DNA from: a virus
Lineage: Duplodnaviria > Heunggongvirae > Uroviricota > Caudoviricetes
DNA length: 11,390 nucleotides
Strand: one strand, 5' to 3'
Virus record (IMG/VR): IMGVR_UViG_3300032167_000073
A program made the translations under genes and the position numbers. Shown in pieces: positions 132-10,867 of the stretch (its first letter is position 1; every line of letters starts with the position of its first letter). The notes under the pieces were generated by a model. It was given only the letters and a program-made list of their open reading frames with translations, was not told the DNA's origin and did no database searches.

Positions 132-195
132 AAAGAAAATGCAGAAAAACTATTGACGTGCGTTAATGCTGGAGCTATAATACAACCATAGTCAA
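132..195 (+). promoter_or_regulatory. Repeat-promoter copy 1
   Basis: TTGACG 153-158, 17-bp spacer containing CTGGAG, TATAAT 176-181, AACCATAGTCAA downstream, A-tracts upstream. Confidence 0.9.
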
Positions 196-234
196 CGACA
201 ACAAACGGTAAACGTCAAAACAGGAGGTATTCAA

Positions 235-417
235 ATGTTCGGCATTAACGCTTGTCTGGAGTCCATCGAATTCGACGTGAAGGTTCTTCATAAAGACCCG
301 CTGCATATGCTCGGCAAATATACGCTGCGTGCAAAGCAAGATCCTAGCTTTAATAAGACGATGATTGACGCGCTGATGATTTACATTGAGCGTAACGGCA
401 TCCGCTGGGATGACTGA
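235..417 (+). CDS. Hypothetical protein, 60 aa
   Basis: AGGAGG RBS at 222-227; only gene of module 1. Confidence 0.85.
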   Translation: MFGINACLESIEFDVKVLHKDPLHMLGKYTLRAKQDPSFNKTMIDALMIYIERNGIRWDD

Positions 418-429
418 AAAGCAAGCCGC

Positions 430-451
430 GCCGGGACGGTAAAATCCCGGC
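430..451 (+). other. GC-rich hairpin, possible terminator or 3' stabiliser
   Basis: GCCGGGA/TCCCGGC 7-bp stem, 8-nt loop; followed by A6 then T5 rather than an immediate U-tract. Confidence 0.45.
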
Positions 452-464
452 AAAAAACTTTTTC

Positions 465-528
465 AAAAATAAATCAGAAAAAGTATTGACAACGGCGTAA
501 GCTGGAGTTACAATCTAACCGTAGTCAA
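465..528 (+). promoter_or_regulatory. Repeat-promoter copy 2
   Basis: TTGACA 486-491, 17 bp, TACAAT 509-514, CTGGAG and AACCGTAGTCAA boxes. Confidence 0.9.
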
Positions 529-566
529 GAAACACCAACACTTAAAGCTTGAAGGGAGTAAAAACC

Positions 567-875
567 ATGACTGAACACATCATTACCGTTGGCCTCTTTG
601 ATAAGGATAGCAAGCGTCAGGAGATCGGCACGCTTGACGCATACAAGGTTATCACGAACATCTTTTGCGGCGCTGGCCTGTGCGCTACGATCCTTGAGGC
701 GCAGGGCGTTTACCGCCACGAAAACGGTGAAGTCGTGGTTGAACCGTCGCTGCGTGTTGAGTGCGCAGGCGCTACGCGCGAACAGATCAAGCCGATCATC
801 ATGCAGATTAAGACGGTTCTTAATCAGGAGTCCGTCATGTATAAGATGGTCGAATCCTCTATCGACTTCCTGTAA
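567..875 (+). CDS. Putative SAM lyase (SAMase)-like / DUF3574-like protein, 102 aa
   Basis: AAGGGAG RBS before ATG 567; motifs G47-x-Y49-R, E59-x-S-L-R-V and Q87-E-S-V resemble the GxY...ExT/S...Q[DE]xV pattern I recall for T3-type SAM lyases; no search run. Confidence 0.55.
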   Translation: MTEHIITVGLFDKDSKRQEIGTLDAYKVITNIFCGAGLCATILEAQGVYRHENGEVVVEPSLRVECAGATREQIKPIIMQIKTVLNQESVMYKMVESSIDFL

Positions 876-941
876 TGCAGATGACGCGCCGCCCATACCG
901 GGCGACGTGTAATGCAGCCGACGGCGGTTCAAAGCCCGCGA
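876..941 (+). ncRNA. Twister self-cleaving ribozyme, circularly permuted (P5-type order)
   Basis: P2 TGCA 876-879/913-916; GA 880-881; pseudoknot TGA 882-884/TCA 929-931; P1 885-894/900-909; U910-A911-A912 cleavage strand; pseudoknot GC 917-918/934-935; P4 GCGG 924-927/CCGC 936-939 closing a T-TCA-AA-GC loop. Confidence 0.85.
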
Positions 942-973
942 TCCTGCTAGATTAAGAAATGGGAGTGTATCAT

Positions 974-1432
974 ATGGCAAGCATTACTAGGGCGCAGCTT
1001 AACAAGTACAATGAAGCGTGCAAGAACGGCTTCATGTTCGATCTGCAGTATTTTCTGACGCATGGCGAAAAGCAGGTGATCCGCATCGTCAAGCAGGCAG
1101 ACGGTTCCCAGCTTCACGCGGTTATCTGGTTCATGCCTGAATACGAGCAGCGCAAAAATGCGTATGGTCAGACGTTTCAGGTGCCTACTGGCCGTCATCA
1201 GCCTGAAGTGCATATTTCCCGTTACGTCGAAAGCCGCATCAATAGCAATATGCTTGTGTCGCATGGCATGGGCAAGTCTATTGTGCTCAATGATCTTGAA
1301 TTGGGCAAGCCCTGCGCCCGTCGCACGTTCTCCACGCTGCAAAAGCTGACGGCGGCGATTAATGACGCATGGATTGAAACGCAGTGGGCAGAAGCGCCCG
1401 CGCGATCCTATGGCGGCGTGATTGTCGGTTGA
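974..1432 (+). CDS. Hypothetical protein, 152 aa
   Basis: GGGAG RBS 961-965 favours ATG 974. Confidence 0.85.
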   Translation: MASITRAQLNKYNEACKNGFMFDLQYFLTHGEKQVIRIVKQADGSQLHAVIWFMPEYEQRKNAYGQTFQVPTGRHQPEVHISRYVESRINSNMLVSHGMGKSIVLNDLELGKPCARRTFSTLQKLTAAINDAWIETQWAEAPARSYGGVIVG

Positions 1433-1446
1433 AGGGAGGGCGCAGC

Positions 1447-1617
1447 ATGAAGGGCAATTGCAAGCGGTACGTCGTCGAATTTGCAGGCGAATTCCTGAAG
1501 AATCCGGCGCTGTCAGATGGCTATAAGGTTGAGATCCGGCGCATTCTTGAGCACTGCAAGCGCGGGCGAATTTCATCCGTTGAAGCCGTCGAATGTATCT
1601 TGAAGCTTGTCAAGTAA
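1447..1617 (+). CDS. Hypothetical protein, 56 aa
   Basis: GGGAGG RBS before ATG 1447. Confidence 0.8.
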   Translation: MKGNCKRYVVEFAGEFLKNPALSDGYKVEIRRILEHCKRGRISSVEAVECILKLVK

Positions 1618-1633
1618 GAGGAGGTAACATATT

Positions 1634-1717
1634 ATGCCTGATATCCTTTGGTTGTTGGCGATCCCGGTTTCCTGCGTGGCGACTTTCAAGCTTCTTGCAT
1701 GGGAACAGACGTTTTAA
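1634..1717 (+). CDS. Small hydrophobic peptide, 27 aa (MPDILWLLAIPVSCVATFKLLAWEQTF)
   Basis: GGAGGT RBS at 1620-1625; fills the gap up to repeat copy 3; below the ORF-track cutoff. Confidence 0.65.
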   Translation: MPDILWLLAIPVSCVATFKLLAWEQTF

Positions 1718-1724
1718 AAATCTG

Positions 1725-1788
1725 AAAAATAATGCAGAAAAACTATTGACAAGGCGGCGGGCTGGAGTTATACTCTAACCATAGTCAA
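1725..1788 (+). promoter_or_regulatory. Repeat-promoter copy 3
   Basis: TTGACA 1746-1751, 17 bp, TATACT 1769-1774, CTGGAG and AACCATAGTCAA boxes. Confidence 0.9.
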
Positions 1789-1822
1789 GGACATCAAACA
1801 GTGAAGCAAGGGAGGCAATCAA

Positions 1823-1996
1823 ATGTATACGCTACACATTATCCCGGTTAGCACCAAAAACCCGCCGCTTTTCGTCAGGCACCATGAACCGACAATTGCC
1901 CATGCAGCAGCCGCCGATTATGCAAAGTTTAGCGACGTGCTGGCCGTAGAGGTTACAAACAACGTAACCGGGGAAATTGAAGCGATTTACGAATAA
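1823..1996 (+). CDS. Hypothetical protein, 57 aa (MYTLHIIP...TGEIEAIYE)
   Basis: GGGAGG RBS, ATG 1823, TAA 1994-1996; not in the ORF track. Confidence 0.8.
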   Translation: MYTLHIIPVSTKNPPLFVRHHEPTIAHAAAADYAKFSDVLAVEVTNNVTGEIEAIYE

Positions 1997-1997
1997 A

Positions 1998-2053
1998 TCC
2001 CGTCTGATGATGGCTGGATGGCCTCCAGCCGAAACGCTGCAAGCGTCACGGGA
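1998..2053 (+). ncRNA. Hammerhead ribozyme, type I
   Basis: Stem I TCCCGT 1998-2003/ACGGGA 2048-2053; CTGATGA 2004-2010; extra T 2011; stem II GGCTGGA 2012-2018/TCCAGCC 2024-2030; GAAA 2031-2034; stem III ACGC 2034-2037/GCGT 2043-2046; GTC cleavage triplet 2045-2047. Confidence 0.9.
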
Positions 2054-2226
2054 AGCCGCCGACGGCACGTAACCGTCGTTAAACCGGGCAGGCAGGCCGA
2101 ACGGCCTGAAGATGAAAGTCGGGCAACCGGGCGGAAAAGAGACAGGTTGAAGCGGGCAAGGAAGCTGCACCCCATGTGATCCGCTGCACGGGCGCGGCAA
2201 ATTCAAAGAAAAGGGGATAACGGGAA

Positions 2227-2538
2227 ATGACTAGAGGGTATCAGGAACGCCGCTATAACATGCAGGCGCGTGAATTTGAGAAGGTTGCCGACTGGACGTT
2301 TACCGTGTATCCCGGCGATAACGAACACTTAACCGTCAGCCGGAACGGAGTCGTGAAAACCGTTCGCGTGGAGGATTGCAGCGAATTCGTTTTCAGTTTG
2401 AAGCGCACAAAAGTGCTTGCGCGTGGCGGCGCGTCCGGCCTCTTTGAATTCATCGACAAAGAGCTGTTCGGGGATGAATTCGCGTGCTTTGCGTGGAAAG
2501 TCCTGCGCCATTGCTTCTTTGATTGCAAGGCGGCTTGA
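2227..2538 (+). CDS. Hypothetical protein, up to 103 aa
   Basis: Co-oriented ORF; start is 2227 or 2260. Confidence 0.7.
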   Translation: MTRGYQERRYNMQAREFEKVADWTFTVYPGDNEHLTVSRNGVVKTVRVEDCSEFVFSLKRTKVLARGGASGLFEFIDKELFGDEFACFAWKVLRHCFFDCKAA

Positions 2539-2587
2539 CGCAGGCGGAACGATGGCCGGAACGATTAACAGAACGGAGGGCGGAACC

Positions 2588-2827
2588 ATGAAGAAGCGGA
2601 AAAGCTATGTTGGTATGAACTTTAAAAAGTGGTGCCAACTTGATCCCGACGATGAACGGAAAATCAATTACACCCTGACAGGCTATTGGGCGTGGGTGTA
2701 CCATGAGGAACATTTTACAAGCGATGACTATTGCGATCCGATGACGATGTTTCGTGTTCAGAATTCGACGATAATGGAAATCAGGCTGGAAAACGACGAA
2801 TGGTTTGTAACCCTGCGTTATAATTAA
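2588..2827 (+). CDS. Hypothetical protein, 79 aa
   Basis: GGAGGG RBS before ATG 2588; ends just before repeat copy 4. Confidence 0.8.
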   Translation: MKKRKSYVGMNFKKWCQLDPDDERKINYTLTGYWAWVYHEEHFTSDDYCDPMTMFRVQNSTIMEIRLENDEWFVTLRYN

Positions 2828-2830
2828 TTT

Positions 2831-2892
2831 AAAAATAAAGCGGAAAAAGTATTGACAAATACAACCGCTGGAGTTATAATAACCTTAGTCAA
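2831..2892 (+). promoter_or_regulatory. Repeat-promoter copy 4
   Basis: TTGACA 2852-2857, 17 bp, TATAAT 2875-2880, CTGGAG, AACCTTAGTCAA (2 bp closer to the -10). Confidence 0.9.
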
Positions 2893-2921
2893 GGAGATAC
2901 AACACTAGGAGGCGGAAAATC

Positions 2922-3182
2922 ATGATCATTGCATCGGAAGTTATGCCGGGGATCGTCTGGAACGTCAATCGCGTATACGACGGAAACGCGCCGGAAGCAA
3001 TCGAGATGGAAACGGAAAACGAATTCATCCGCAGATTTAACCCCGTGGTGCTTTCTAACGGCCTGACCGGAAAAAGCTTCTGCATGGATACATGGATGCC
3101 TACAGGCCGACTGCTGGAAAATATCGTGCCGACGTGGGGCGCGGATGGAACGGGCGTTTATCATGCGCTGATCGTGTACTGA
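2922..3182 (+). CDS. Hypothetical protein, 86 aa
   Basis: AGGAGG RBS; first gene of module 4. Confidence 0.85.
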   Translation: MIIASEVMPGIVWNVNRVYDGNAPEAIEMETENEFIRRFNPVVLSNGLTGKSFCMDTWMPTGRLLENIVPTWGADGTGVYHALIVY

Positions 3183-3203
3183 TGGCGGAACGGAGGAATG
3201 GAA

Positions 3204-3344
3204 GTGGAAAAGCTTTATAAGGGCGTGAAGTACGATCTGAAGCCGGAAGGATATTTCACGATCCGCCTGCCGGATGGCGGATGGACAAAGTTCTTTGGAA
3301 CGGAAACGGATTGCAAGACGTTTATCCGGTTCATGATCAAGTGA
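3204..3344 (+). CDS. Hypothetical protein, ~46 aa (start-EKLYKGVKY...FMIK)
   Basis: GGAGG 3192-3196 suits GTG 3204; ATG 3198 is in frame but too close to the RBS; TGA 3342-3344. Confidence 0.7.
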   Translation: MEKLYKGVKYDLKPEGYFTIRLPDGGWTKFFGTETDCKTFIRFMIK

Positions 3345-3376
3345 TAGACCGTTAGACGGAAGAGGAGGAACAACAC

Positions 3377-3739
3377 ATGAAAATCAAGCTGGATGAGCGT
3401 GTCATTACGCTGGCGGAAGTGCAGCAGGCAAATGAGCTTGCGGCGGAAAGCGATTGGATCGACGTGGATACCATTGAAGGAGTTGTGCGCGGAAACCTTG
3501 GCGGTCATATCATGTTTGATGAGCTGATCGGAACGCCGGAACTGACGGTTACAAAGAACGATTTCCGTCTGACGGTTTGGGTGGAATGTTGGGCGCGGTT
3601 CTTCCGGGATGGAAAGAGCCGGATTGCAAAGGTCAGCGCGGATGTGCTCAAGTGGACGCAGGGCATGGAAAAAGCGGCGTTTATCGTGGAGTATGAGGAG
3701 ACGCGCGACTATATCACAAGCGGAAAGCCGGAGGCTTAA
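3377..3739 (+). CDS. Hypothetical protein, 120 aa
   Basis: GAGGAGG RBS; co-oriented ORF. Confidence 0.85.
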   Translation: MKIKLDERVITLAEVQQANELAAESDWIDVDTIEGVVRGNLGGHIMFDELIGTPELTVTKNDFRLTVWVECWARFFRDGKSRIAKVSADVLKWTQGMEKAAFIVEYEETRDYITSGKPEA

Positions 3740-3741
3740 AG

Positions 3742-3921
3742 ATGGAATTTCTCATTGAGGTTTGCGAGTCCGTGCGCAAGATCGTGCGCGTTGAGGCGGA
3801 GGATGAGCAGGCCGCTTGCGCCAAAGCTGAAGTGATGTATGATAACGGAAAGATCGACATGGAAAAAGATGTGGTCGTGGAAACTGAATTCACATGCAGG
3901 AAGCGCGGAACGGAACTGTAA
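3742..3921 (+). CDS. DpnD/PcfM-like small protein, 59 aa
   Basis: GGAGG RBS 3730-3734; IEVCESVRKIVRVEAEDEQAA...MYDNGKI...EF resembles my recollection of the DpnD/PcfM pattern; not in the ORF track. Confidence 0.6.
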   Translation: MEFLIEVCESVRKIVRVEAEDEQAACAKAEVMYDNGKIDMEKDVVVETEFTCRKRGTEL

Positions 3922-3929
3922 AACTCTTT

Positions 3930-3993
3930 AAAAATAATACAGAATAAGTATTGACAAATGGGATGTCTGGAGTTATAATCTAACCATAGTCAG
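3930..3993 (+). promoter_or_regulatory. Repeat-promoter copy 5
   Basis: TTGACA 3951-3956, 17 bp, TATAAT 3974-3979, CTGGAG, AACCATAGTCAG. Confidence 0.9.
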
Positions 3994-4023
3994 AGACATA
4001 CAATAGTAACGGAGGGCGATCCA

Positions 4024-4263
4024 ATGGAAAAGAAGATGACATATGCTGAATTCATGGAATCGGAAGAATACCGGGGCGCAGGCATCATTGGGCTGTACGA
4101 TTCGGATGGAACGGAAATAGACTGTGATGTGCCGGATGAGGATCTTGCGGAATCGGAAGTTCTGGAAGTGGAAGCGCACGCAGGATATGTAAGCGTCGTC
4201 ATCGACTTTGATGTATCCAAATGTCCGAAAAATAAAGCGGCGTTTGCGGCAGCACGAAAATAA
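4024..4263 (+). CDS. Acidic hypothetical protein, 79 aa
   Basis: GGAGGG RBS; 19 D/E versus 8 K/R. Confidence 0.85.
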   Translation: MEKKMTYAEFMESEEYRGAGIIGLYDSDGTEIDCDVPDEDLAESEVLEVEAHAGYVSVVIDFDVSKCPKNKAAFAAARK

Positions 4264-4279
4264 CAGGGAGGATGATCCA

Positions 4280-4810
4280 ATGGAAAAGCGGATGACGCTG
4301 GCGCAGCTCAAGCGGGATGCAAATTCCGGCTGCTTGGTTCTTGAAATCATGGAACGCTTTGGCGACACGGGCGAGCAGATCCCGGAACGTCTGCGTGGAA
4401 AGCGCCCGGTCACGCGAAGCAATTCTGTCGGCATCTTCCTGCGCAACATGTCCGGCGAGGAAAGCGAGCTGCGATTGGATAACGCGAAGCTGACCGAGTA
4501 CACCGGAGACGAGCTTGTCATTTACAGCGCCGGATACCGTGACGTAACGCCGCAGGAGCAGGCTGTGCTGGATGGTATCAAACGGATCTTAGCAGAGCGT
4601 GCGGATGAGTATAACGGCGGATTCTGGCAAGCTAAACAGTTTGCTATGGAAAGTGATTGCCCGTGGATGTGGGTGTATGGAACCGGGGCGATTAATGGTA
4701 AAAGATACGATCTGTGTAGCGGAAGAGTGCTTGATCATGCCGTGCGCGGAGACGTAGAAATCCGCTATAAGGTGTACAGAAAGGAGCCGCAGAATGGAAA
4801 AGCTGTATAA
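4280..4810 (+). CDS. Hypothetical protein, 176 aa
   Basis: GGGAGG RBS favours ATG 4280. Confidence 0.85.
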   Translation: MEKRMTLAQLKRDANSGCLVLEIMERFGDTGEQIPERLRGKRPVTRSNSVGIFLRNMSGEESELRLDNAKLTEYTGDELVIYSAGYRDVTPQEQAVLDGIKRILAERADEYNGGFWQAKQFAMESDCPWMWVYGTGAINGKRYDLCSGRVLDHAVRGDVEIRYKVYRKEPQNGKAV

Positions 4811-4949
4811 CGTCTATTTCACGGATGCACCGGACGATCCCGTCAAGGTGCGCTGCGCCAATAAGACGCAGGCGCGGGCGGAAGGTCGCCTGTATATCAA
4901 ACAGTGGAACCTGAAAGCAAAGATTGACCGGATTGAGGAGGCCGCTTGA
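4794..4949 (+). CDS. Hypothetical protein, 51 aa (MEKLYNVYF...IEEAA)
   Basis: AAGGAG RBS 4781-4786; overlaps the upstream gene end; not in the ORF track. Confidence 0.75.
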   Translation: MEKLYNVYFTDAPDDPVKVRCANKTQARAEGRLYIKQWNLKAKIDRIEEAA

Positions 4950-4950
4950 T

Positions 4951-5190
4951 ATGGAAAACAAAAAGGAGTTTTACATTGATACGCCCATCGGAAAGCTGCA
5001 TGTGTATGAAAAAGCCGATCCTGACTATCCCGGCATCTTTGTGGATTTGATCAATCCGCAGTTACGCAATGATGATAATATGATCTGCTGCGTGGAATAC
5101 GAACAGCTTATGCAGCGGATTCAGACTGTCACATATAGGCCGGGAGAGGATGAACCCACCGACATCATCATCAATTATGAGGAGGGGTGA
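4951..5190 (+). CDS. Hypothetical protein, 79 aa
   Basis: GAGGAGG RBS before ATG 4951. Confidence 0.85.
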   Translation: MENKKEFYIDTPIGKLHVYEKADPDYPGIFVDLINPQLRNDDNMICCVEYEQLMQRIQTVTYRPGEDEPTDIIINYEEG

Positions 5191-5193
5191 CGG

Positions 5194-5394
5194 ATGGAAA
5201 GAAAGAAAATCAGGCAGCTCATCTGCAGCGCCGGAACCCGTGAAGCGCTGGAAACGATGATCAATGAGTTTTACTATTCGGATTCATACCGGATTCGGGA
5301 TGATGGAACCGTATTCAACGCGAAGAAAAACGCCGTGCTGGATAGCACGATGGTCGAGCAGCGCCGTGGCCGCTGGCGCTTTGGTCTGATTTGA
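5194..5394 (+). CDS. Hypothetical protein, 66 aa
   Basis: GGAGGGG RBS; tight packing with neighbours. Confidence 0.8.
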   Translation: MERKKIRQLICSAGTREALETMINEFYYSDSYRIRDDGTVFNAKKNAVLDSTMVEQRRGRWRFGLI

Positions 5395-5407
5395 CGGAGG
5401 GATGACG

Positions 5408-5611
5408 ATGAAATACTTCTATACGCATGATAGCGAGCTGCGCAAGCACAACGGCCTGAAGGTGGAAATTCTCAGGAAGTTGACTGCAAGCGAGTGTGAC
5501 GAGGAGGAAGTCGGCAGCATGTACGAAGTCCGCATGCCGGACGGCAAAGAGATTCATGCTTTTGATGATGAATTGTTTGACGAGCAGCAGGAGGGTTTTC
5601 CGTGCGCATGA
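5408..5611 (+). CDS. Hypothetical protein, 67 aa
   Basis: GGAGGG 5396-5401 favours ATG 5408. Confidence 0.85.
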   Translation: MKYFYTHDSELRKHNGLKVEILRKLTASECDEEEVGSMYEVRMPDGKEIHAFDDELFDEQQEGFPCA

Positions 5612-5829
5612 TCAAAGTGGATGGCAGGCCGACGCGCCTGCGCCGTTTCCGGGTGCGCCTGCTGGTCTTGTCGGAGGTTCCCGCACAGTATGCAAGCGTC
5701 ACCGTCGAGCTGCTGGCCGCGAATTATTTGGATGCTCAGGAGCGTGTGGCAGCGCTTTTCAAAAGCGAGCTGGTGGATGAGGATCGCGGCCTTGAAGTGA
5801 CCGAAGTCGAGCGCACGAAGTACGCATAA
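5602..5829 (+). CDS. Hypothetical protein, 75 aa
   Basis: GGAGG RBS with GTG start overlapping the upstream gene end. Confidence 0.7.
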   Translation: MRMIKVDGRPTRLRRFRVRLLVLSEVPAQYASVTVELLAANYLDAQERVAALFKSELVDEDRGLEVTEVERTKYA

Positions 5830-5845
5830 GCGGGAGGATGAGCAA

Positions 5846-6133
5846 ATGGAAATCACAAAGATGCTGACGATCTCCAATGGACACGTGTCCGATGAAACGT
5901 GGCAGAAGCTTGCAAGGGAGGCAAGCGCGGAGTTTGGCGTTGTCCTGCCCATGGCCGTCTACGCAAAGGGCGAGTATGGTTTTCTCATCTCCTGCGCGTG
6001 CATGTATAATGAGGAAAACGAGGGTATCCCCGACGATCTGCTTATGTGCATGAAGCTGGCGCATGAGTGCGGCTGTATGTGGCTTTGTCTGGACGATGAC
6101 GGCGAGCTGCTTTCCTGCCTGCCGCGATATTGA
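5846..6133 (+). CDS. Hypothetical protein, 95 aa, possibly DUF5983-like
   Basis: GGGAGG RBS; IS-x-x-H, GEYGFLI and WLCLDDDG...LP segments resemble a mobile-element family from memory; family call tentative. Confidence 0.75.
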   Translation: MEITKMLTISNGHVSDETWQKLAREASAEFGVVLPMAVYAKGEYGFLISCACMYNEENEGIPDDLLMCMKLAHECGCMWLCLDDDGELLSCLPRY

Positions 6134-6157
6134 CAAACGCTCAAAACCCGCTATAAT
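6130..6157 (+). promoter_or_regulatory. Stand-alone sigma70/sigmaA-type promoter, not a copy of the repeat
   Basis: TTGACA 6130-6135, 16 bp, TATAAT 6152-6157; no CTGGAG or TAGTCA box; overlaps the upstream stop codon. Confidence 0.7.
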
Positions 6158-6217
6158 GGGCTTGTAGAGGCCGGAAAACGACGATAAAACGCACATTTTA
6201 ACCATGGAGGGATGATC

Positions 6218-6442
6218 ATGGGAGACCTTGTAACTATGGCGGTTCTGTCCGCGCTTTGTGTTGTGCTGTATAAGTTCGGCAATTGGTGCGGCGCAAAGGT
6301 TCCTGTCAATGATACCTATGACTTCCGGGGCTATCGCAAAAAGCCGTTTACAAGGGAAGATTTGGACGAGCTGCACCGCCGCTGTATCGGAAAGCCACAG
6401 AAGGAACAGCAGTGGATCATCCGCAATTACAGAGGAAAGTGA
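6218..6442 (+). CDS. Putative membrane-anchored protein, 74 aa
   Basis: GGAGGG 6206-6211 favours ATG 6218; N-terminal hydrophobic stretch LVTMAVLSALCVVLY. Confidence 0.75.
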   Translation: MGDLVTMAVLSALCVVLYKFGNWCGAKVPVNDTYDFRGYRKKPFTREDLDELHRRCIGKPQKEQQWIIRNYRGK

Positions 6443-6452
6443 GCGCCCTATC

Positions 6453-6623
6453 ATGACACCAAAGGAATTCTATGAGCAGATGCAGCAGATTCGTGCAGAC
6501 GAGGATCTTTCAAATGACGATAAGCATGAGCGCATGGACGCGCTGATGTGCAAGTTGCTGGCCGAAATGGGATATACAGACGGCATTGAAGTTTTTAGAA
6601 GTACAGAAAAATGGTATTGGTGA
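6453..6623 (+). CDS. Hypothetical protein, 56 aa
   Basis: ATG 6453 in the long open frame; RBS weak; ends at the terminator. Confidence 0.75.
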   Translation: MTPKEFYEQMQQIRADEDLSNDDKHERMDALMCKLLAEMGYTDGIEVFRSTEKWYW

Positions 6624-6653
6624 TCCGGCCTGAAATGGTCGGATTTTTTCTTT
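6623..6653 (+). terminator. Intrinsic terminator
   Basis: ATCCGGCC/GGTCGGAT 8-bp stem (one G-U), 6-nt loop, then TTTTTCTTT. Confidence 0.8.
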
Positions 6654-6664
6654 GAAAATTTCTT

Positions 6665-6728
6665 AAAAATAATACCGAAAAAGTATTGACGCAAGATTGA
6701 ACTGGAGTTATAATCTAACCGTAGTCAA
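6665..6728 (+). promoter_or_regulatory. Repeat-promoter copy 6
   Basis: TTGACG 6686-6691, 17 bp, TATAAT 6709-6714, CTGGAG, AACCGTAGTCAA. Confidence 0.9.
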
Positions 6729-6766
6729 GGAACAGCAACGGTAAAACGAAACAGGAGGACGGAACG

Positions 6767-6940
6767 ATGAAGTGGAAAGTCGTGGTTGATATCTCCCCTA
6801 GAATGATCGAAGGAACCAACGGTTGTCATAAGTATGTGCATAGCTGGCACGACACGAAGAAGGAAGCGGACAACATCGCAGCGCAGATTAACGAAAACGG
6901 CAAGCTTGGCAAGGCGACGGTCGAAAGAGTAAAGCGATAA
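6767..6940 (+). CDS. Hypothetical protein, 57 aa (MKWKVVVD...ERVKR)
   Basis: AGGAGG RBS; first gene of module 6; not in the ORF track. Confidence 0.8.
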   Translation: MKWKVVVDISPRMIEGTNGCHKYVHSWHDTKKEADNIAAQINENGKLGKATVERVKR

Positions 6941-6954
6941 GGGAGGAAAACACG

Positions 6955-7266
6955 ATGAGACTTCATTATTACAGATTCCCGGAGAATACGCCGGAAGAAA
7001 CCAAATTGGCCGAGGGCTGCGCGGTGATCCTGAAGACTGGTAGAGAGATTTGCGTTGACCATATCCCGGATGACCGTAGGCCGCTGGTTGATCGTGTGGA
7101 TGATACGCTTGGCGGGCTGTCTATCACGCACGTCAAGAACCTGATCAAGACCTACGGCGGCACCGGATGGACGGAGCACTGCGAGCGAGACGGCAGCGTG
7201 TTTGAAGTCACCGAGATCAAGCTGGCCGGAAACAATAGCCGATTCAAATACAACCATCACCTGTAA
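6955..7266 (+). CDS. Hypothetical protein, 103 aa
   Basis: GGGAGG RBS; co-oriented ORF. Confidence 0.85.
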   Translation: MRLHYYRFPENTPEETKLAEGCAVILKTGREICVDHIPDDRRPLVDRVDDTLGGLSITHVKNLIKTYGGTGWTEHCERDGSVFEVTEIKLAGNNSRFKYNHHL

Positions 7267-7279
7267 GGAGGCGACGATC

Positions 7280-7498
7280 ATGGAAACCATCAAGGAAAAG
7301 ACCTTGACCTTTATGGATGTGGACGCTTGGAGCCGTCCGCTTTACAAGGATGAAAACGGCAGAATATGGGCAGATATATCGCCGATGAGCGGGTGGAAGC
7401 CGGAATTGTACACCGTCACAGACGAGGGCGAGCCGGATATGCCGATGAAGTCTGGCATCAAAGTCACGTTTGTACCGCATCGAATCGTGTGGAGATGA
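7280..7498 (+). CDS. Hypothetical protein, 72 aa
   Basis: AAGGAGG RBS favours ATG 7280. Confidence 0.85.
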   Translation: METIKEKTLTFMDVDAWSRPLYKDENGRIWADISPMSGWKPELYTVTDEGEPDMPMKSGIKVTFVPHRIVWR

Positions 7499-7511
7499 GG
7501 AGGAAGAAACC

Positions 7512-7739
7512 ATGATCAAGGCAGAGGGAAACAGGATGATCGAAGTGAGCAGAAAAGATTTGAAGCTCTACACGTTCGGCGCTAACCTCAATCCGATTTA
7601 TAACATCAAAGAGCCGGAACTGACCGAAATCAAGATCCCGGCCACGGATTACCAGCACGCACTTGACCGCCTTGAGGCGCTGGTTGGCCGCAGCAGAGTG
7701 TCTGAATTCTTCTGGCAGGATGAAGAAAAGTATGAATAA
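7512..7739 (+). CDS. Hypothetical protein, 75 aa
   Basis: GAGGAGG RBS favours ATG 7512. Confidence 0.8.
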   Translation: MIKAEGNRMIEVSRKDLKLYTFGANLNPIYNIKEPELTEIKIPATDYQHALDRLEALVGRSRVSEFFWQDEEKYE

Positions 7740-7752
7740 GGAGGGCGACAAA

Positions 7753-7959
7753 ATGAGTAGTAACGAACGAAACGAGCTTGTGCATGCACTGTCCGCAGCA
7801 TCCAATGCTTTTCATAGAGTTCTGAAAGAACATGGCTATGAAGTGAGCTATGGTCTGGATAATACAAACACCGGGATCATCATGAAATCTGATGTTCCTG
7901 TGTATGAAAACAATGATCTTGGAAAACTGACAATCCTTTGGAATCTGAAAAAGGAGTGA
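7753..7959 (+). CDS. Hypothetical protein, 68 aa
   Basis: AAGGAGG RBS favours ATG 7753. Confidence 0.8.
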   Translation: MSSNERNELVHALSAASNAFHRVLKEHGYEVSYGLDNTNTGIIMKSDVPVYENNDLGKLTILWNLKKE

Positions 7960-7964
7960 AGAAG

Positions 7965-8120
7965 ATGAAGCCTTGTGCAGAACTGGCGATAGAAAGAGCA
8001 AAGCGGGAAAAGCTTGAGCTTGCAAAGAAGTACGACGTGTCGCCGTCAGCGATTGTATGGCTGGGCGATAGCCGCTATATCGTCGTCAAAGGCGGTCAGG
8101 AAATCAAGGTGTGGAGGTAA
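7965..8120 (+). CDS. Hypothetical protein, 51 aa
   Basis: AAGGAG RBS before ATG 7965. Confidence 0.75.
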   Translation: MKPCAELAIERAKREKLELAKKYDVSPSAIVWLGDSRYIVVKGGQEIKVWR

Positions 8121-8124
8121 AACC

Positions 8125-8352
8125 ATGTGGATTGGCTTTGATACAAATAAGCATCATGGTATCGTTGAAGTGGGTACGGGACGGGTTATCGCGTATGAAA
8201 ATTCCCCGGCGATATCAAGACGAAAGTTTGAAACACATGTGAAAACGTCTGTGAATACCTTTCCGTATACGGATGAGGATTTGATTATCATCGGAGCGAG
8301 AAAAGCTCTGTTTGGATGTTCGCACGTGCTCAATGAGGTTGCGGGAGGTTAA
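8125..8352 (+). CDS. Hypothetical protein, 75 aa
   Basis: GGAGGT RBS before ATG 8125. Confidence 0.8.
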   Translation: MWIGFDTNKHHGIVEVGTGRVIAYENSPAISRRKFETHVKTSVNTFPYTDEDLIIIGARKALFGCSHVLNEVAGG

Positions 8353-8357
8353 AGAGA

Positions 8358-8525
8358 ATGTTTGTTGAAGATCATCGTCGATATTTCATCATGCAGCAGT
8401 ATTGGGATCTGTGGGGCATCGTCGAGGAAGAGGATGCGTATATCTGTCATGATGCGCTGGAGGAGTATGCGCAGGAATGGCATACGACGGTTGAAGAGCT
8501 TTTAAAACAGATGATCGAAGTGTAA
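8358..8525 (+). CDS. Acidic hypothetical protein, 55 aa (MFVEDHRRYF...QMIEV)
   Basis: GGGAGGT RBS; 14 D/E versus 3 K/R; not in the ORF track. Confidence 0.8.
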   Translation: MFVEDHRRYFIMQQYWDLWGIVEEEDAYICHDALEEYAQEWHTTVEELLKQMIEV

Positions 8526-8537
8526 CGGAGGAATAAC

Positions 8538-8729
8538 ATGGTCAGACACATGCCCGCGCCGAGGCTCAAGAACTATGTTTACCGCTATAAGACGGATAAA
8601 GCCCTGCTGGAAAAGCACCCGGAGCAGCGCGAGCTGCTGGAAAAGAGGATCGCGCGGCACGAAAAGGATATTGTCGCCTACGTGACGAGCGAGCATTTTG
8701 AAAATGCACTGAATAATCTTCATCTTTGA
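8538..8729 (+). CDS. Hypothetical protein, 63 aa
   Basis: GGAGG RBS; stop codon abuts repeat copy 7. Confidence 0.8.
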   Translation: MVRHMPAPRLKNYVYRYKTDKALLEKHPEQRELLEKRIARHEKDIVAYVTSEHFENALNNLHL

Positions 8730-8792
8730 AAAATAATACAGAAAAACTATTGACATATGCATACGCTGGAGTTATAATACAACCATAGTCAA
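8729..8792 (+). promoter_or_regulatory. Repeat-promoter copy 7
   Basis: TTGACA 8750-8755, 17 bp, TATAAT 8773-8778, CTGGAG, AACCATAGTCAA. Confidence 0.9.
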
Positions 8793-8823
8793 TGACATGC
8801 AATGGTAGATGGAGGGATACAGA

Positions 8824-9201
8824 ATGAAGAACGATCTGATGTTTGGTTGCCTTGGCAACGGAATCACGGTATGGGATAGAAGCCGGAATGAGGGTGGCAA
8901 CTATAAGACCGTCGCGCATATCAGCGAGTTCGGCGGCGTGCGTCTCTTTAAGAATCACGGTCTTTCCGATGAAAGTATTGCCCGGATTCACCAGCATGCG
9001 AGGCATCAGGCCGAGGCATTCCACGTTCATTTCCTGAATCTGCCGTATAGCAGGCAGCTTGAATACTATTACAACGTCATGACGCATGCGCAGTTCCTTG
9101 AGCGAGGGAAAAGCGGCGATAAGACGGCGCAGCAGCTCTATGAAGCGTATGTCAGTTGTGCATGCGCCAATCATGGTTACGAGATGAGGGAATCGCAATG
9201 A
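8824..9201 (+). CDS. Hypothetical protein, 125 aa
   Basis: GGAGGG 8811-8816 favours ATG 8824; GNGITVWDR...YKTVAHIS segment resembles a motif I associate with mobile elements. Confidence 0.85.
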   Translation: MKNDLMFGCLGNGITVWDRSRNEGGNYKTVAHISEFGGVRLFKNHGLSDESIARIHQHARHQAEAFHVHFLNLPYSRQLEYYYNVMTHAQFLERGKSGDKTAQQLYEAYVSCACANHGYEMRESQ

Positions 9202-9689
9202 ATGATGTAATGAGAATTGATTTTATATCCGGCATGTGTAATTCCGATGGCGAACTTGTAAAAGGAACGGAAAAAGAAGTTTGCATACTCTTTAATCAAA
9301 CGGTCATTTCCAAGGAAGAAGTGCATGAGCTGATAAAAGCGGGGATGTATGAATACGATAAACGTATTATCGTCACAACGCCCGTTCAGGCGGATAATCT
9401 GAAAGGTTGTAAAAAGGGGGGGGCTGAAATCATGGTGAAGCATGGCCTGTTTGATACAAACGATCTGCTTCTGAGCAAGGGGCAGAAGGATGTCAAGGAT
9501 TTTCTGATCTTTGAATCCGAAACGTCCGCTGTTTATCCTTTTGCCGTTGCGCCGGAGGATGTGACGTTTGCGCATGTTGCGCAGATCATCGACACGGCAA
9601 GCGCAGGTTCTTGGCATGCCGGGTTCAATGTCACGACGGATGATCTGTATGCAGCTTGTGAAAAGGTGCTTGGCATCAATCCAGCTTAA
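9198..9689 (+). CDS. Hypothetical protein, 163 aa; possibly two genes joined across a G8 tract
   Basis: ATGA overlap with the upstream stop; internal A5G8 at 9411-9423 sits 8 nt before in-frame ATG 9432. Confidence 0.75.
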   Translation: MNDVMRIDFISGMCNSDGELVKGTEKEVCILFNQTVISKEEVHELIKAGMYEYDKRIIVTTPVQADNLKGCKKGGAEIMVKHGLFDTNDLLLSKGQKDVKDFLIFESETSAVYPFAVAPEDVTFAHVAQIIDTASAGSWHAGFNVTTDDLYAACEKVLGINPA

Positions 9690-9706
9690 TAATACGGAGG
9701 TTGTTT

Positions 9707-9904
9707 ATGTTTGTGAGACAGCTTGTCAGAATGGCACATAATGATGAATATATCAGCGTTGAGGATGAAAGCTTTAATGTATTTGCAGAAGGAGAAGCAA
9801 GAAACGTGATGTCAAATCGCGTCATTCTTGGCCTGAAGGTAGATCATTTTTATACAGGGAACCGGAATAACCGCGAATGCACTGTGGTTGTTGCAAGTAA
9901 ATAA
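9707..9904 (+). CDS. Hypothetical protein, 65 aa
   Basis: GGAGGT RBS before ATG 9707. Confidence 0.8.
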   Translation: MFVRQLVRMAHNDEYISVEDESFNVFAEGEARNVMSNRVILGLKVDHFYTGNRNNRECTVVVASK

Positions 9905-9928
9905 GGATTGCAGACAGGAGGAAACACC

Positions 9929-10618
9929 ATGGAAGATCGTTGCAGGGATGTGCTTGGCGAGCGCGAGGATCACCCGTCGTATGCGATGATGAGTGTCAGT
10001 AAGATGTCGTCAAACGTCGGCATGCCGCTGTTTGGTTCGTCCATCAAGCACCGCGATACCATCAAGCTCACCATTAAGCGCGGACATGTGCGCCGCAGGC
10101 TCAATCAGGACTGGTATTATGGTAATGAGCGTTTGATCGAAGTGGAGATGTCGTATTCGCAGTTCGCCGAGATCATGACCTCTATGAACGTCGGAGACGG
10201 TATCCCGGTCACGCTCACCTATTTCAAGGGTGAAGGACGCATCCCGGAATGCCCGTTCGTAGATAAGGCGAGCGTGCATCTTGACGAGTTCCGCGAGAGC
10301 CTGAAGAAGACCTACGCCAATACGCAGGCGCTTATTGGGCGCGTGCGGGAGCTTTTCGCGGGTAAAAAGTCCTTTAATAAGGCAGAGCAGCATGAGATCC
10401 TGTGTGCGCTTAATTCCATCAGTGCCGATATCGGCACCAATCAGGATTTTCAGGTGTCGCAGTTTCATGAGCAGATGGAAAAGACTGTCCGCGAGGGTAA
10501 GGGCGAGATTGAGAGCTTCTTCCAGAGCAGGGCGAGCCATTATGCGGCGCATAAGCTTGTCGAGGCGGGCGAAGAGGCTATGCCGGAGCTTCCGCCCGTG
10601 GAAATTGATATGAAATAA
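9929..10618 (+). CDS. Hypothetical protein, 229 aa, longest in the window
   Basis: AGGAGG RBS before ATG 9929; HPSY...LFGS...IEVEMSYSQFAE pattern looks like a phage/plasmid family of unknown function (from memory). Confidence 0.9.
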   Translation: MEDRCRDVLGEREDHPSYAMMSVSKMSSNVGMPLFGSSIKHRDTIKLTIKRGHVRRRLNQDWYYGNERLIEVEMSYSQFAEIMTSMNVGDGIPVTLTYFKGEGRIPECPFVDKASVHLDEFRESLKKTYANTQALIGRVRELFAGKKSFNKAEQHEILCALNSISADIGTNQDFQVSQFHEQMEKTVREGKGEIESFFQSRASHYAAHKLVEAGEEAMPELPPVEIDMK

Positions 10619-10641
10619 TAACAATAAAGCGAGGATAAATC

Positions 10642-10791
10642 ATGATCATCACCATCAGGGACGGCCTTGGTTATGTCAGTCTGGAAATCGAAAACGACAT
10701 CACCTTCACGGATGGCTATGCCTTTTTCACTGCTGATAACAAAGAGTATAAGGTGCATGCGGAGCATGTCGTTGAGATCACCGGGAAATAA
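10642..10791 (+). CDS. Hypothetical protein, 49 aa (MIITIRDG...EITGK)
   Basis: GAGG RBS; ends just before repeat copy 8; not in the ORF track. Confidence 0.75.
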   Translation: MIITIRDGLGYVSLEIENDITFTDGYAFFTADNKEYKVHAEHVVEITGK

Positions 10792-10805
10792 GTTCAAAGA
10801 AATTT

Positions 10806-10867
10806 AAAAATAATGCAGAAAAGGTATTGACAAATGTGCCGTCTGGAGTTATACTAACCTTAGTCAG
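10806..10867 (+). promoter_or_regulatory. Repeat-promoter copy 8
   Basis: TTGACA 10827-10832, 17 bp, TATACT 10850-10855, CTGGAG, AACCTTAGTCAG. Confidence 0.9.

Follow-up and report, generated by a model that had tools for sequence, protein, structure and literature searches.

A candidate type-P5 twister ribozyme directly behind a SAM-lyase-like phage gene, and the elements that stand at the same position in related contigs

The SAM-lyase-like gene and its surroundings

The window analysed in this work, a stretch of 11,390 nt from an uncultivated phage of the class Caudoviricetes (IMG/VR record IMGVR_UViG_3300032167_000073), is a run of small open reading frames (ORFs) on the same strand without Pfam or PHROG matches. 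Strong, repeated sigma-70-type promoters are found at 153-181, 486-514, 1746-1774 and at further positions, and a search for tRNA genes returned none in the window. Comparison of its DNA with GenBank phages gave no match, and the same was true of a tblastn search of these phages with the SAM-lyase-like protein described below. A cassette (repeat families D1 and D2) recurs about eight times across 132-10867; each copy is some 60-110 nt long, contains a near-consensus TTGACA-17 nt-TATAAT promoter and stands ahead of a small gene. A 42-nt direct repeat (family D5), 98% identical between its two copies, lies at 1-42 and 68-109 with a spacing of 67 nt.

The features around the ribozyme are collected in Table 1. 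The gene ahead of it encodes a protein of 102 aa, which taken alone reaches 20.8 bits against Pfam S-AdoMet_lyase, below the cutoff of 28, and also stays below the cutoff against DUF3574. The protein has 48 homologues, and a profile of 34 homologues matches the phage SAM lyase Svi3-3 (PDB 6ZM9) with an E value of 1.3e-7 over residues 6-97, the GVY, E-x-S and QES motifs being aligned between the family profile and Svi3-3. Moreover, G47, Y49, E59, N86, Q87, E88 and S89 are invariant in the family. An earlier note on this DNA, made from the letters alone, had called the gene SAM-lyase-like; this name (Svi3-3 / Pfam PF23780) is supported and appears justified at the level of the family. The same note had described a ribozyme fused to the stop codon of this gene, which is literally the case: the first base of the ribozyme (876) directly follows the TAA, and the arrangement recurs in the related contigs L119, L136 and L124-126.

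The promoter at 486-514, which belongs to one of the roughly eight cassettes, is on the same strand as the ribozyme, and the next promoter is that at 1746-1774. Between the two no convincing terminator was found, the only site being a weak one at 1251-1274. For the 152-aa protein encoded downstream of the ribozyme, no relatives were found in IMG/VR and no Pfam or PHROG family was matched.

Further along the same strand, 1.1 kb from the twister, a type I hammerhead-like motif (CUGAUGA, stem II, GAAA, stem III, GUC) was seen at 1998-2058. It begins 2 nt past the stop codon of the ORF at 1823-1996, which is the first gene behind the 1746-1774 promoter. An extra U separates its core from stem II; the predicted fold is a three-way junction, and Rfam gave no match to it at E values up to 1.

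Table 1. Position of the promoter, genes and predicted ribozyme elements in the window
Feature	Position	Strand	Remarks
Sigma-70-like promoter, TTGACA-17 nt-TACAAT	486-514	+	11/12 hexamer matches
102-aa gene, Svi3-3-type phage SAM lyase family	567-875	+	Stop codon TAA at 873-875; family profile compared with PDB 6ZM9
Candidate type-P5 twister, whole motif	876-939	+	RF02684 match and parse of elements
P2, 3' strand, UGCA	876-879	+	4/4 bp with UGCA 913-916
Conserved GA after P2 3' strand	880-881	+	G880 and A881 match the consensus
T1 pseudoknot, 5' strand, UGA	882-884	+	Complementary to UCA 929-931
P1 hairpin	885-909	+	9 pairs, C885-G909 to C894-G900; one mismatch, C889.A905; loop AUACC 895-899
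Predicted scissile bond, U910^A911	910-911	+	Aligned to consensus UAA and to the U-A cleavage site of the family (PMC5408937)
P2, 5' strand, UGCA	913-916	+	Preceded by A911 and A912
T2 pseudoknot, GC	917-918	+	Pairs with G934 and C935 in loop L4
Linker, CGACG	919-923	+	5 nt, directly after T2 GC
P4, GCG/CGC	924-926 with 937-939	+	3/3 pairs; encloses loop L4
Loop L4, GU-UCA-AAGCC	927-936	+	GU 927-928, UCA 929-931, AAGCC 932-936
Shine-Dalgarno-like GGGAGU of next gene	961-966	+	Complementary to ACUUCC 865-870
152-aa gene	974-1432	+	Start at 974 behind GGGAG; orthologue in L119 59% identical

The twister core and its variable parts

Scanning the window with Rfam (cmscan) gave a match to Twister-P5 (RF02684) at 876-939 on the plus strand. 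Its score of 41.5 bits (E 5.4e-6) exceeds the gathering threshold, 37.6, by only 3.9 bits, and the alignment spans the full model (positions 1-58). No second RNA-family match was obtained in the whole window, on both strands, even at E values up to 1. The twister class was reportedly described by Roth et al. in 2014. It is characterized by three essential stems, two pseudoknots, about ten conserved nucleotides in L1 and L4 and a U-A cut site, and three natural permutations of it have been described (PMC5408937). At 876-939, the elements follow each other in the order P2 3' strand, T1, P1 hairpin, UAA, P2 5' strand, T2 and P4/L4, with P1 closed by a loop and both ends of the chain in the P4-to-P2 junction, as in the type-P5 permutation. 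The three stems, both pseudoknots, the U-A cut site and the permutation are all found here, and only the optional P5 is missing.

In the RF02684 alignment the consensus is matched at 917-918, G934, C935, G880, A881, A911, A912, U928, A932 and A933, and T2 together with the strongly conserved L1/L4 columns is invariant in alignment A2. P1, P2 and P4 were all recovered in the MFE fold of 850-975. At highly conserved consensus positions, the sequence departs from the model in the T1 triplet, where the change is compensated on the other strand, and in one linker base. Since these departures are compensated, barring that linker base, the RF02684 match is more than chance. The assignment of 876-939 to the type-P5 twisters is confirmed at the level of family membership, which makes it a candidate ribozyme of this class.

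The earlier note had placed every core element in this same order, and the sequence agrees with its parse base for base. Both of the pseudoknots it proposed, a 3-bp TGA/TCA and a GC/GC one, hold up, the former by complementarity of the two triplets and the latter in the RF02684 alignment (917-918 with 934-935). A cut between 910 and 911 stands as a predicted position, as it fits the consensus UAA of the model, and the covariance-model check that the note suggested is the one reported above, with a score over the gathering threshold. Its word 'permuted' is correct for the order of the elements but not as a sign of something unusual, type P5 being one of the three natural forms.

The T1 consensus GNG...CNC reads UGA...UCA in the window, with both strands changed, and the first T1 pair is U-A, in contrast to the G-C of most twisters. 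We matched a degenerate pattern of the twister 3' half in more than 113 IMG/VR phage contigs and parsed 74 type-P1, 34 type-P5 and 8 ambiguous copies. The T1 triplet was fully complementary in 72 of the 74 type-P1 and 33 of the 34 type-P5 phage twisters (105/108 together), and at least ten different triplet pairs were seen among them, which indicates that T1 covaries freely. A pattern specific for UGA:UCA added a single contig from IMG/VR, L118, and four from metagenomes; a fifth metagenome match, L140, is the L118 contig. The UGA:UCA version of T1 is carried by nine distinct twisters, whose P1 and P4 sequences are unrelated yet always paired. Scores of 45-56 bits are reached by the copies in L139, L141 (two) and L142. 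We consider this T1 variant to be modestly new.

P5 is an optional stem (PMC5408937), and its helix is not included in the Rfam model RF02684. In the flanks of the window copy (14 nt before and 16 nt after the ribozyme) the best helix has 3 bp, in agreement with the earlier remark that a convincing closing P5 stem is missing. For 41 phage type-P5 copies the mean best flank helix was 3.6 bp vs 3.9 bp in shuffled flanks. To judge from these flanks, phage 'type-P5' twisters are generally without P5, and its absence here is therefore not disqualifying. In the MFE fold of 850-975, ACUUCC 865-870 forms a 6-bp helix with the Shine-Dalgarno-like GGGAGU 961-966 and closes the ribozyme. This pairing was tried as a P5 and rejected: the fold is not better than those of shuffled sequences (z -0.87), the flanks of type-P5 copies behave like shuffled ones, and the register is not conserved in L119, which keeps only 4 pairs in the same register and needs a shifted one for 6 pairs.

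The sequence TGTAATGCAG occurs at both 871-880 and 908-917. We rejected it as a trace of insertion or duplication. As had been noticed before, the repeat consists largely of the two self-complementary P2 strands, and the palindromic P2 (UGCA), which stands once after the stop codon TAA and once after the UAA of the cleavage site, explains both copies. The same pattern is seen in L138 and partly in L136.

What follows the gene in relatives, and where phage twisters lie

Contigs with homologues of the 102-aa gene were scanned with Rfam, and the sequence after each stop codon was read. In L124-126, where the protein is 99% identical to that of the window, an identical twister comes right after the stop codon. 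L119 (78% protein identity, 59% for the downstream protein) has a twister of 48.4 bits on the first base after TGA, with P1 wholly replaced and the core identical, and in L136 (77%) one of 36.6 bits stands directly after TAA, followed by an unrelated gene. A damaged twister (26.4 bits) with a 7-nt linker deletion and one P2 mismatch is present in L122 (83%), which indicates that the element can be lost. P1 reads CGCGCCGCCC/GGGCGACGUG in the window, CAGGCC/GGCCUG in L119 and CGCC/GGCG in L136 and is paired throughout; P4 passes from GCG/CGC in the window to ACG/CGU in L136, with both strands changed and the pairing kept. These compensatory changes in P1 and P4 reveal that selection acts on the structure of the RNA and not on the sequence of the DNA. 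The twister cores are nearly identical among the window and its close relatives, and the 3' flank is not alignable. Seen from this set of contigs, structural selection acts on the ribozyme in the close relatives of the window, and a change of the downstream gene leaves it with the upstream one.

L123, which encodes the same protein as L122, diverges at 1059-1080, in the middle of the P1 hairpin, into unrelated sequence with an opposite-strand ORF next. Either this junction was made by recombination within the ribozyme, or the contig is a chimera of the assembly.

In other relatives, the position behind the stop codon is taken by other elements. L120 (76%) carries a type I hammerhead (CUGAAGA core, GAAA, stem III, UC), and so does L137 (71%), with the same core as in L120. 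Their stem I differs, AACCC/GGGUU in L120 vs AGCCA/UGGCU in L137, as do their stems III. The hammerhead of L120 folds as a three-way junction and gave only a weak, partial Rfam match, to the RAGATH-1 hammerhead model (18.7 bits). In L121 (71%) and L128/L129 (68%) the stop codon is followed by the same conserved element of about 70 nt without an Rfam match, and in L127 (70%) and L130-134 (52-55%) by a hairpin and then a T-run, that is, an intrinsic terminator. Among the IMG/VR homologues L001-L004 (34-48%), no twister was found downstream; one weak, sub-threshold hammerhead match lies upstream of the SAM-lyase homologue in L001. Other devices that yield a hairpin-ended 3' terminus thus take the place of the ribozyme at the same position.

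The element of about 70 nt lies directly after the SAM-lyase stop codon, at L121:2810-2885 and L128:1851-1925 (L129 is identical). RNAalifold, applied to two sequences only, predicts two hairpins, a long imperfect one and a small one, with 2 compensatory pairs. The element matched no Rfam family at E values up to 10, and a pattern search of IMG/VR gave nothing. We also tried it by hand as a hammerhead or pistol ribozyme, and the cores do not fit. An RNase III-type site is one possibility for it, a processing motif of a kind not yet described another.

A conserved non-coding stretch of about 400 nt lies between the SAM-lyase gene and the next gene in L120 (2870-3220), L121 (2900-3330) and L128 (1940-2360). 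It holds a promoter-like TTGAC box and blocks such as GATCCTTAAAAACTG and CGGCGGCGGCATATGGCAAAG, and it is missing from the window, where only GATCCT is left at 940-945. L128 has, in addition, a second type-P5 twister at 2799-2855 (42.7 bits), on the base after the stop codon of a different gene of 45 aa; in this copy P2 has covaried to CACA/UGUG, and T1 reads GCA:UGC. In L130, a contig of 111 kb, a 54-aa gene at 512-676, 2 kb upstream of the SAM-lyase homologue, has a weak match to Pfam AcrIC5 (anti-CRISPR), which fits an anti-defence gene neighbourhood.

The position next to a stop codon is common among type-P5 copies. In the IMG/VR set, for which gene distances were taken from crude ORF calls (at least 50 aa) and not from curated genes, 25 of 40 type-P5 twisters start 0-9 nt after a stop codon, nine of them at 0 nt, vs 7 of 62 type-P1 twisters within 9 nt (Fisher p 1.3e-7). 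In 34/41 type-P5 copies, 16-59 nt separate the ribozyme from the next start codon, which is usually accompanied by a Shine-Dalgarno motif. For the predicted 5' product, the final 40 nt form a stable fold in both types (median z -1.65 for P1 and -1.76 for P5), and many type-P1 copies have a separate hairpin just upstream. This abutment to stop codons, specific to type P5, is modestly new. Arrays of type-P5 twisters at successive gene junctions were also observed, with six copies in 2.7 kb in L036 (2680-5405), three in L056 (518-3143) and two in L141 (167-1062).

Proposed role and comparison with known systems

The two predicted products differ in their structure. For the segment 840-910, which terminates in the P1 hairpin, the folding energy is -24.9 kcal/mol (z -2.95), and 911-1000 is less structured than shuffled sequences (z +2.1), so that the ribosome-binding site would be left open. 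As the predicted cut lies 35 nt past the stop codon, the upstream message would keep its stop. From family membership, position and conservation, we infer cleavage in vivo and an effect on expression, and we regard it as fairly probable, although not beyond reasonable doubt, that a functional twister cuts the early transcript and gives the SAM-lyase mRNA a hairpin 3' end while transcription continues. The early transcript from the 486-514 promoter would carry this twister at 876-939. Once the polymerase has passed 939, the RNA would fold via P1, P2, P4, T1 and T2 and cut itself co-transcriptionally between U910 and A911. The upstream piece would then be a short SAM-lyase message, closed at its 3' end by the stable P1 hairpin and a 2',3'-cyclic phosphate; the downstream piece, headed by the 152-aa gene, would start with a 5'-OH and a weakly structured leader and carry the next genes. 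The ribozyme might in this way stand in for a terminator hairpin or an RNase III site, defining and protecting the 3' end of the mRNA of the first gene while transcription goes on and no host enzyme is needed. The stability and yield of the anti-restriction gene would be uncoupled from the genes behind it. Terminators at the same site in relatives suggest that the shared function concerns the upstream 3' end. Indeed, the presence of alternative elements at the same base argues for selection of a first-gene mRNA with a hairpin at its 3' terminus.

The same cut might however matter through its downstream product. Its 5'-OH end might mark the downstream mRNA for decay by RNase J1, if the host belongs to the Firmicutes, or shield it from the 5'-monophosphate-dependent RNase E in Proteobacteria, and thereby set the ratio of the later genes to the first one. 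In the case of glmS, the 5'-OH end left by the ribozyme cut leads to decay by RNase J1 in Firmicutes. The open leader and strong Shine-Dalgarno sequence of the 3' product are consistent with such a role, as is the short distance to the next start codon in the 34 of 41 type-P5 cases given above, and strong Shine-Dalgarno motifs hint at a Firmicute host. Nevertheless, the ribozyme travels with the upstream gene, being found before an unrelated gene in L136 and L122, and terminators fill the same site in other relatives. We consider it rather unlikely that the downstream product is the one that counts; which of the two products is more important would depend on the RNases of the host.

A broader proposal, which we regard as doubtful in its full form, is that the site behind the SAM-lyase gene is an interchangeable slot for a '3'-end maker', be it a twister, a hammerhead, an intrinsic terminator or the element of about 70 nt (L121, L128). 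In a further twist, the two adenines of the stop codon stand where type-P1 twisters have their nearly invariant junction adenines, and the terminating ribosome would cover P2' and T1, so that cleavage could be translation-gated. Before type-P1 copies, A is found at -1, -2 and -3 in 56, 52 and 48 of 57. Of 42 type-P5 copies, 17 have A and 14 have G at -1 and 27 have A at -2, a pattern to which abutting stop codons alone would lead. If the logic of the slot were true, phage ribozymes would be host-independent substitutes for the formation of 3' ends by terminators or RNase III. For the L121/L128 element it would leave two options, a site of the RNase III type or a self-cleaving motif that has yet to be described.

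That the sequence is a decaying or inactive relic, twister-like but cutting at no useful rate, seems to us improbable. The marginal score, the C.A mismatch in P1, the weaker U-A as first T1 pair and the clearly damaged copy in L122 would all suit a relic and have to be counted against a functional ribozyme; the missing P5 may be added on the relic side, and the missing twister at 34-48% identity also counts against function. However, the core has stayed the same in relatives with no more than 59-78% protein identity, the changes in P1 and P4 are compensatory, UGA:UCA twisters reach their 45-56 bits in other contexts, and phage type-P5 twisters in general are without P5. A translational switch is still less credible. 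Here the pairing of 865-870, within the last codons of the upstream gene, with the Shine-Dalgarno sequence would serve as a surrogate P5, and cleavage with strand release, or a ribosome on these codons, would free the ribosome-binding site. The 6-bp helix of the MFE fold is compatible with it, as is the position of the first 9 nt of the ribozyme inside the footprint of a terminating ribosome, inferred from known footprints, but the shuffling results and the register in L119 that spoke against a P5 apply here as well, and L118 and L136 are without such pairing. Least probable of all is a module boundary or selfish passenger, in which a conserved gene-junction sequence promotes phage recombination and cleavage is incidental: the gene downstream of the SAM-lyase-plus-twister unit does differ among relatives, L123 diverges inside the ribozyme and ribozyme classes are swapped at one site, but 64 nt with a variable P1 leave little homology for recombination to act on, the compensatory changes point to the RNA structure, not the DNA sequence, as the target of selection, and L123 could have arisen by chimeric assembly.

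We thus keep to a twister that forms the 3' end of the SAM-lyase mRNA as the preferred reading, and its parts can be compared with known systems. The copy of the window shares with the type-P5 twister (RF02684, clan CL00120) the order of elements, the 4-bp P2, the 3-bp T1, the GC:GC T2, the L4 sequence GU-NNN-AAGCC, the GA and the U-A cut site. It differs by its T1, UGA:UCA in contrast to the common GUG:CAC, and by its P2. The combination of UGCA/UGCA and a 5-nt linker is one that many type-P1 phage twisters show, and among the parsed type-P5 copies P2 is CGCA/UGCG in 32 of 38. Its P1 is long, with one mismatch, and P5 is missing.

In the early transcripts of phages T7 and T3, RNase III sites are found between the early genes, and gene 0.3 of T3 encodes a SAM lyase (Dunn and Studier). 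There too, an early anti-restriction gene is cut from a polycistronic transcript and receives a protective 3' hairpin. In T7 and T3 a host enzyme cuts a long hairpin, in contrast to the self-cleavage predicted here, and the likeness is a functional analogy only, with no sequence relation. Bacterial 3'-UTR twisters were reportedly placed in reporters by Felletti et al. in 2017, and their effect on expression is said to depend on the structure at the new 3' end. Such twisters also stand downstream of a coding region; they were tested in reporters, whereas ours, behind an early gene of an uncultivated phage, is read from sequence. The review PMC6765202 (its ref. 148) places bacterial twister motifs in mRNA 3' UTRs and proposes a role in the processing of polycistronic mRNA. 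It is established that twisters lie near phage genes and within a few kb of hammerheads (PMC5408937), and the biological role of the thousands of bacterial and phage twisters and hammerheads is still called speculative in PMC5408937 and PMC6765202.

A parallel in setting is given by the prophage hammerheads, which flank genes including the anti-restriction gene ardA in Agrobacterium tumefaciens and have been proposed to turn long transcripts into gene-length mRNAs (Perreault et al. 2011, PMC3088659). The mechanism that we propose agrees with this suggestion and with the one made for bacterial 3'-UTR twisters. As here, a ribozyme lies at a gene boundary of a polycistronic phage transcript, beside an anti-restriction gene. 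The ribozyme belongs to another class there, and that work does not report that, at a given orthologous site, a ribozyme of one class gives way to another class or to a terminator. Our ribozyme copy represents a known class in a known setting, as twisters between phage genes were already known; modestly new is the series of twister, hammerhead, hairpin and terminator at one site behind one anti-restriction gene. While a single copy is one more example, this set of relatives amounts to a natural experiment, in which a twister, a hammerhead, a long hairpin or a terminator can each be found at the same base behind one and the same small anti-restriction gene, and it supplies matched natural variants for a reporter test.
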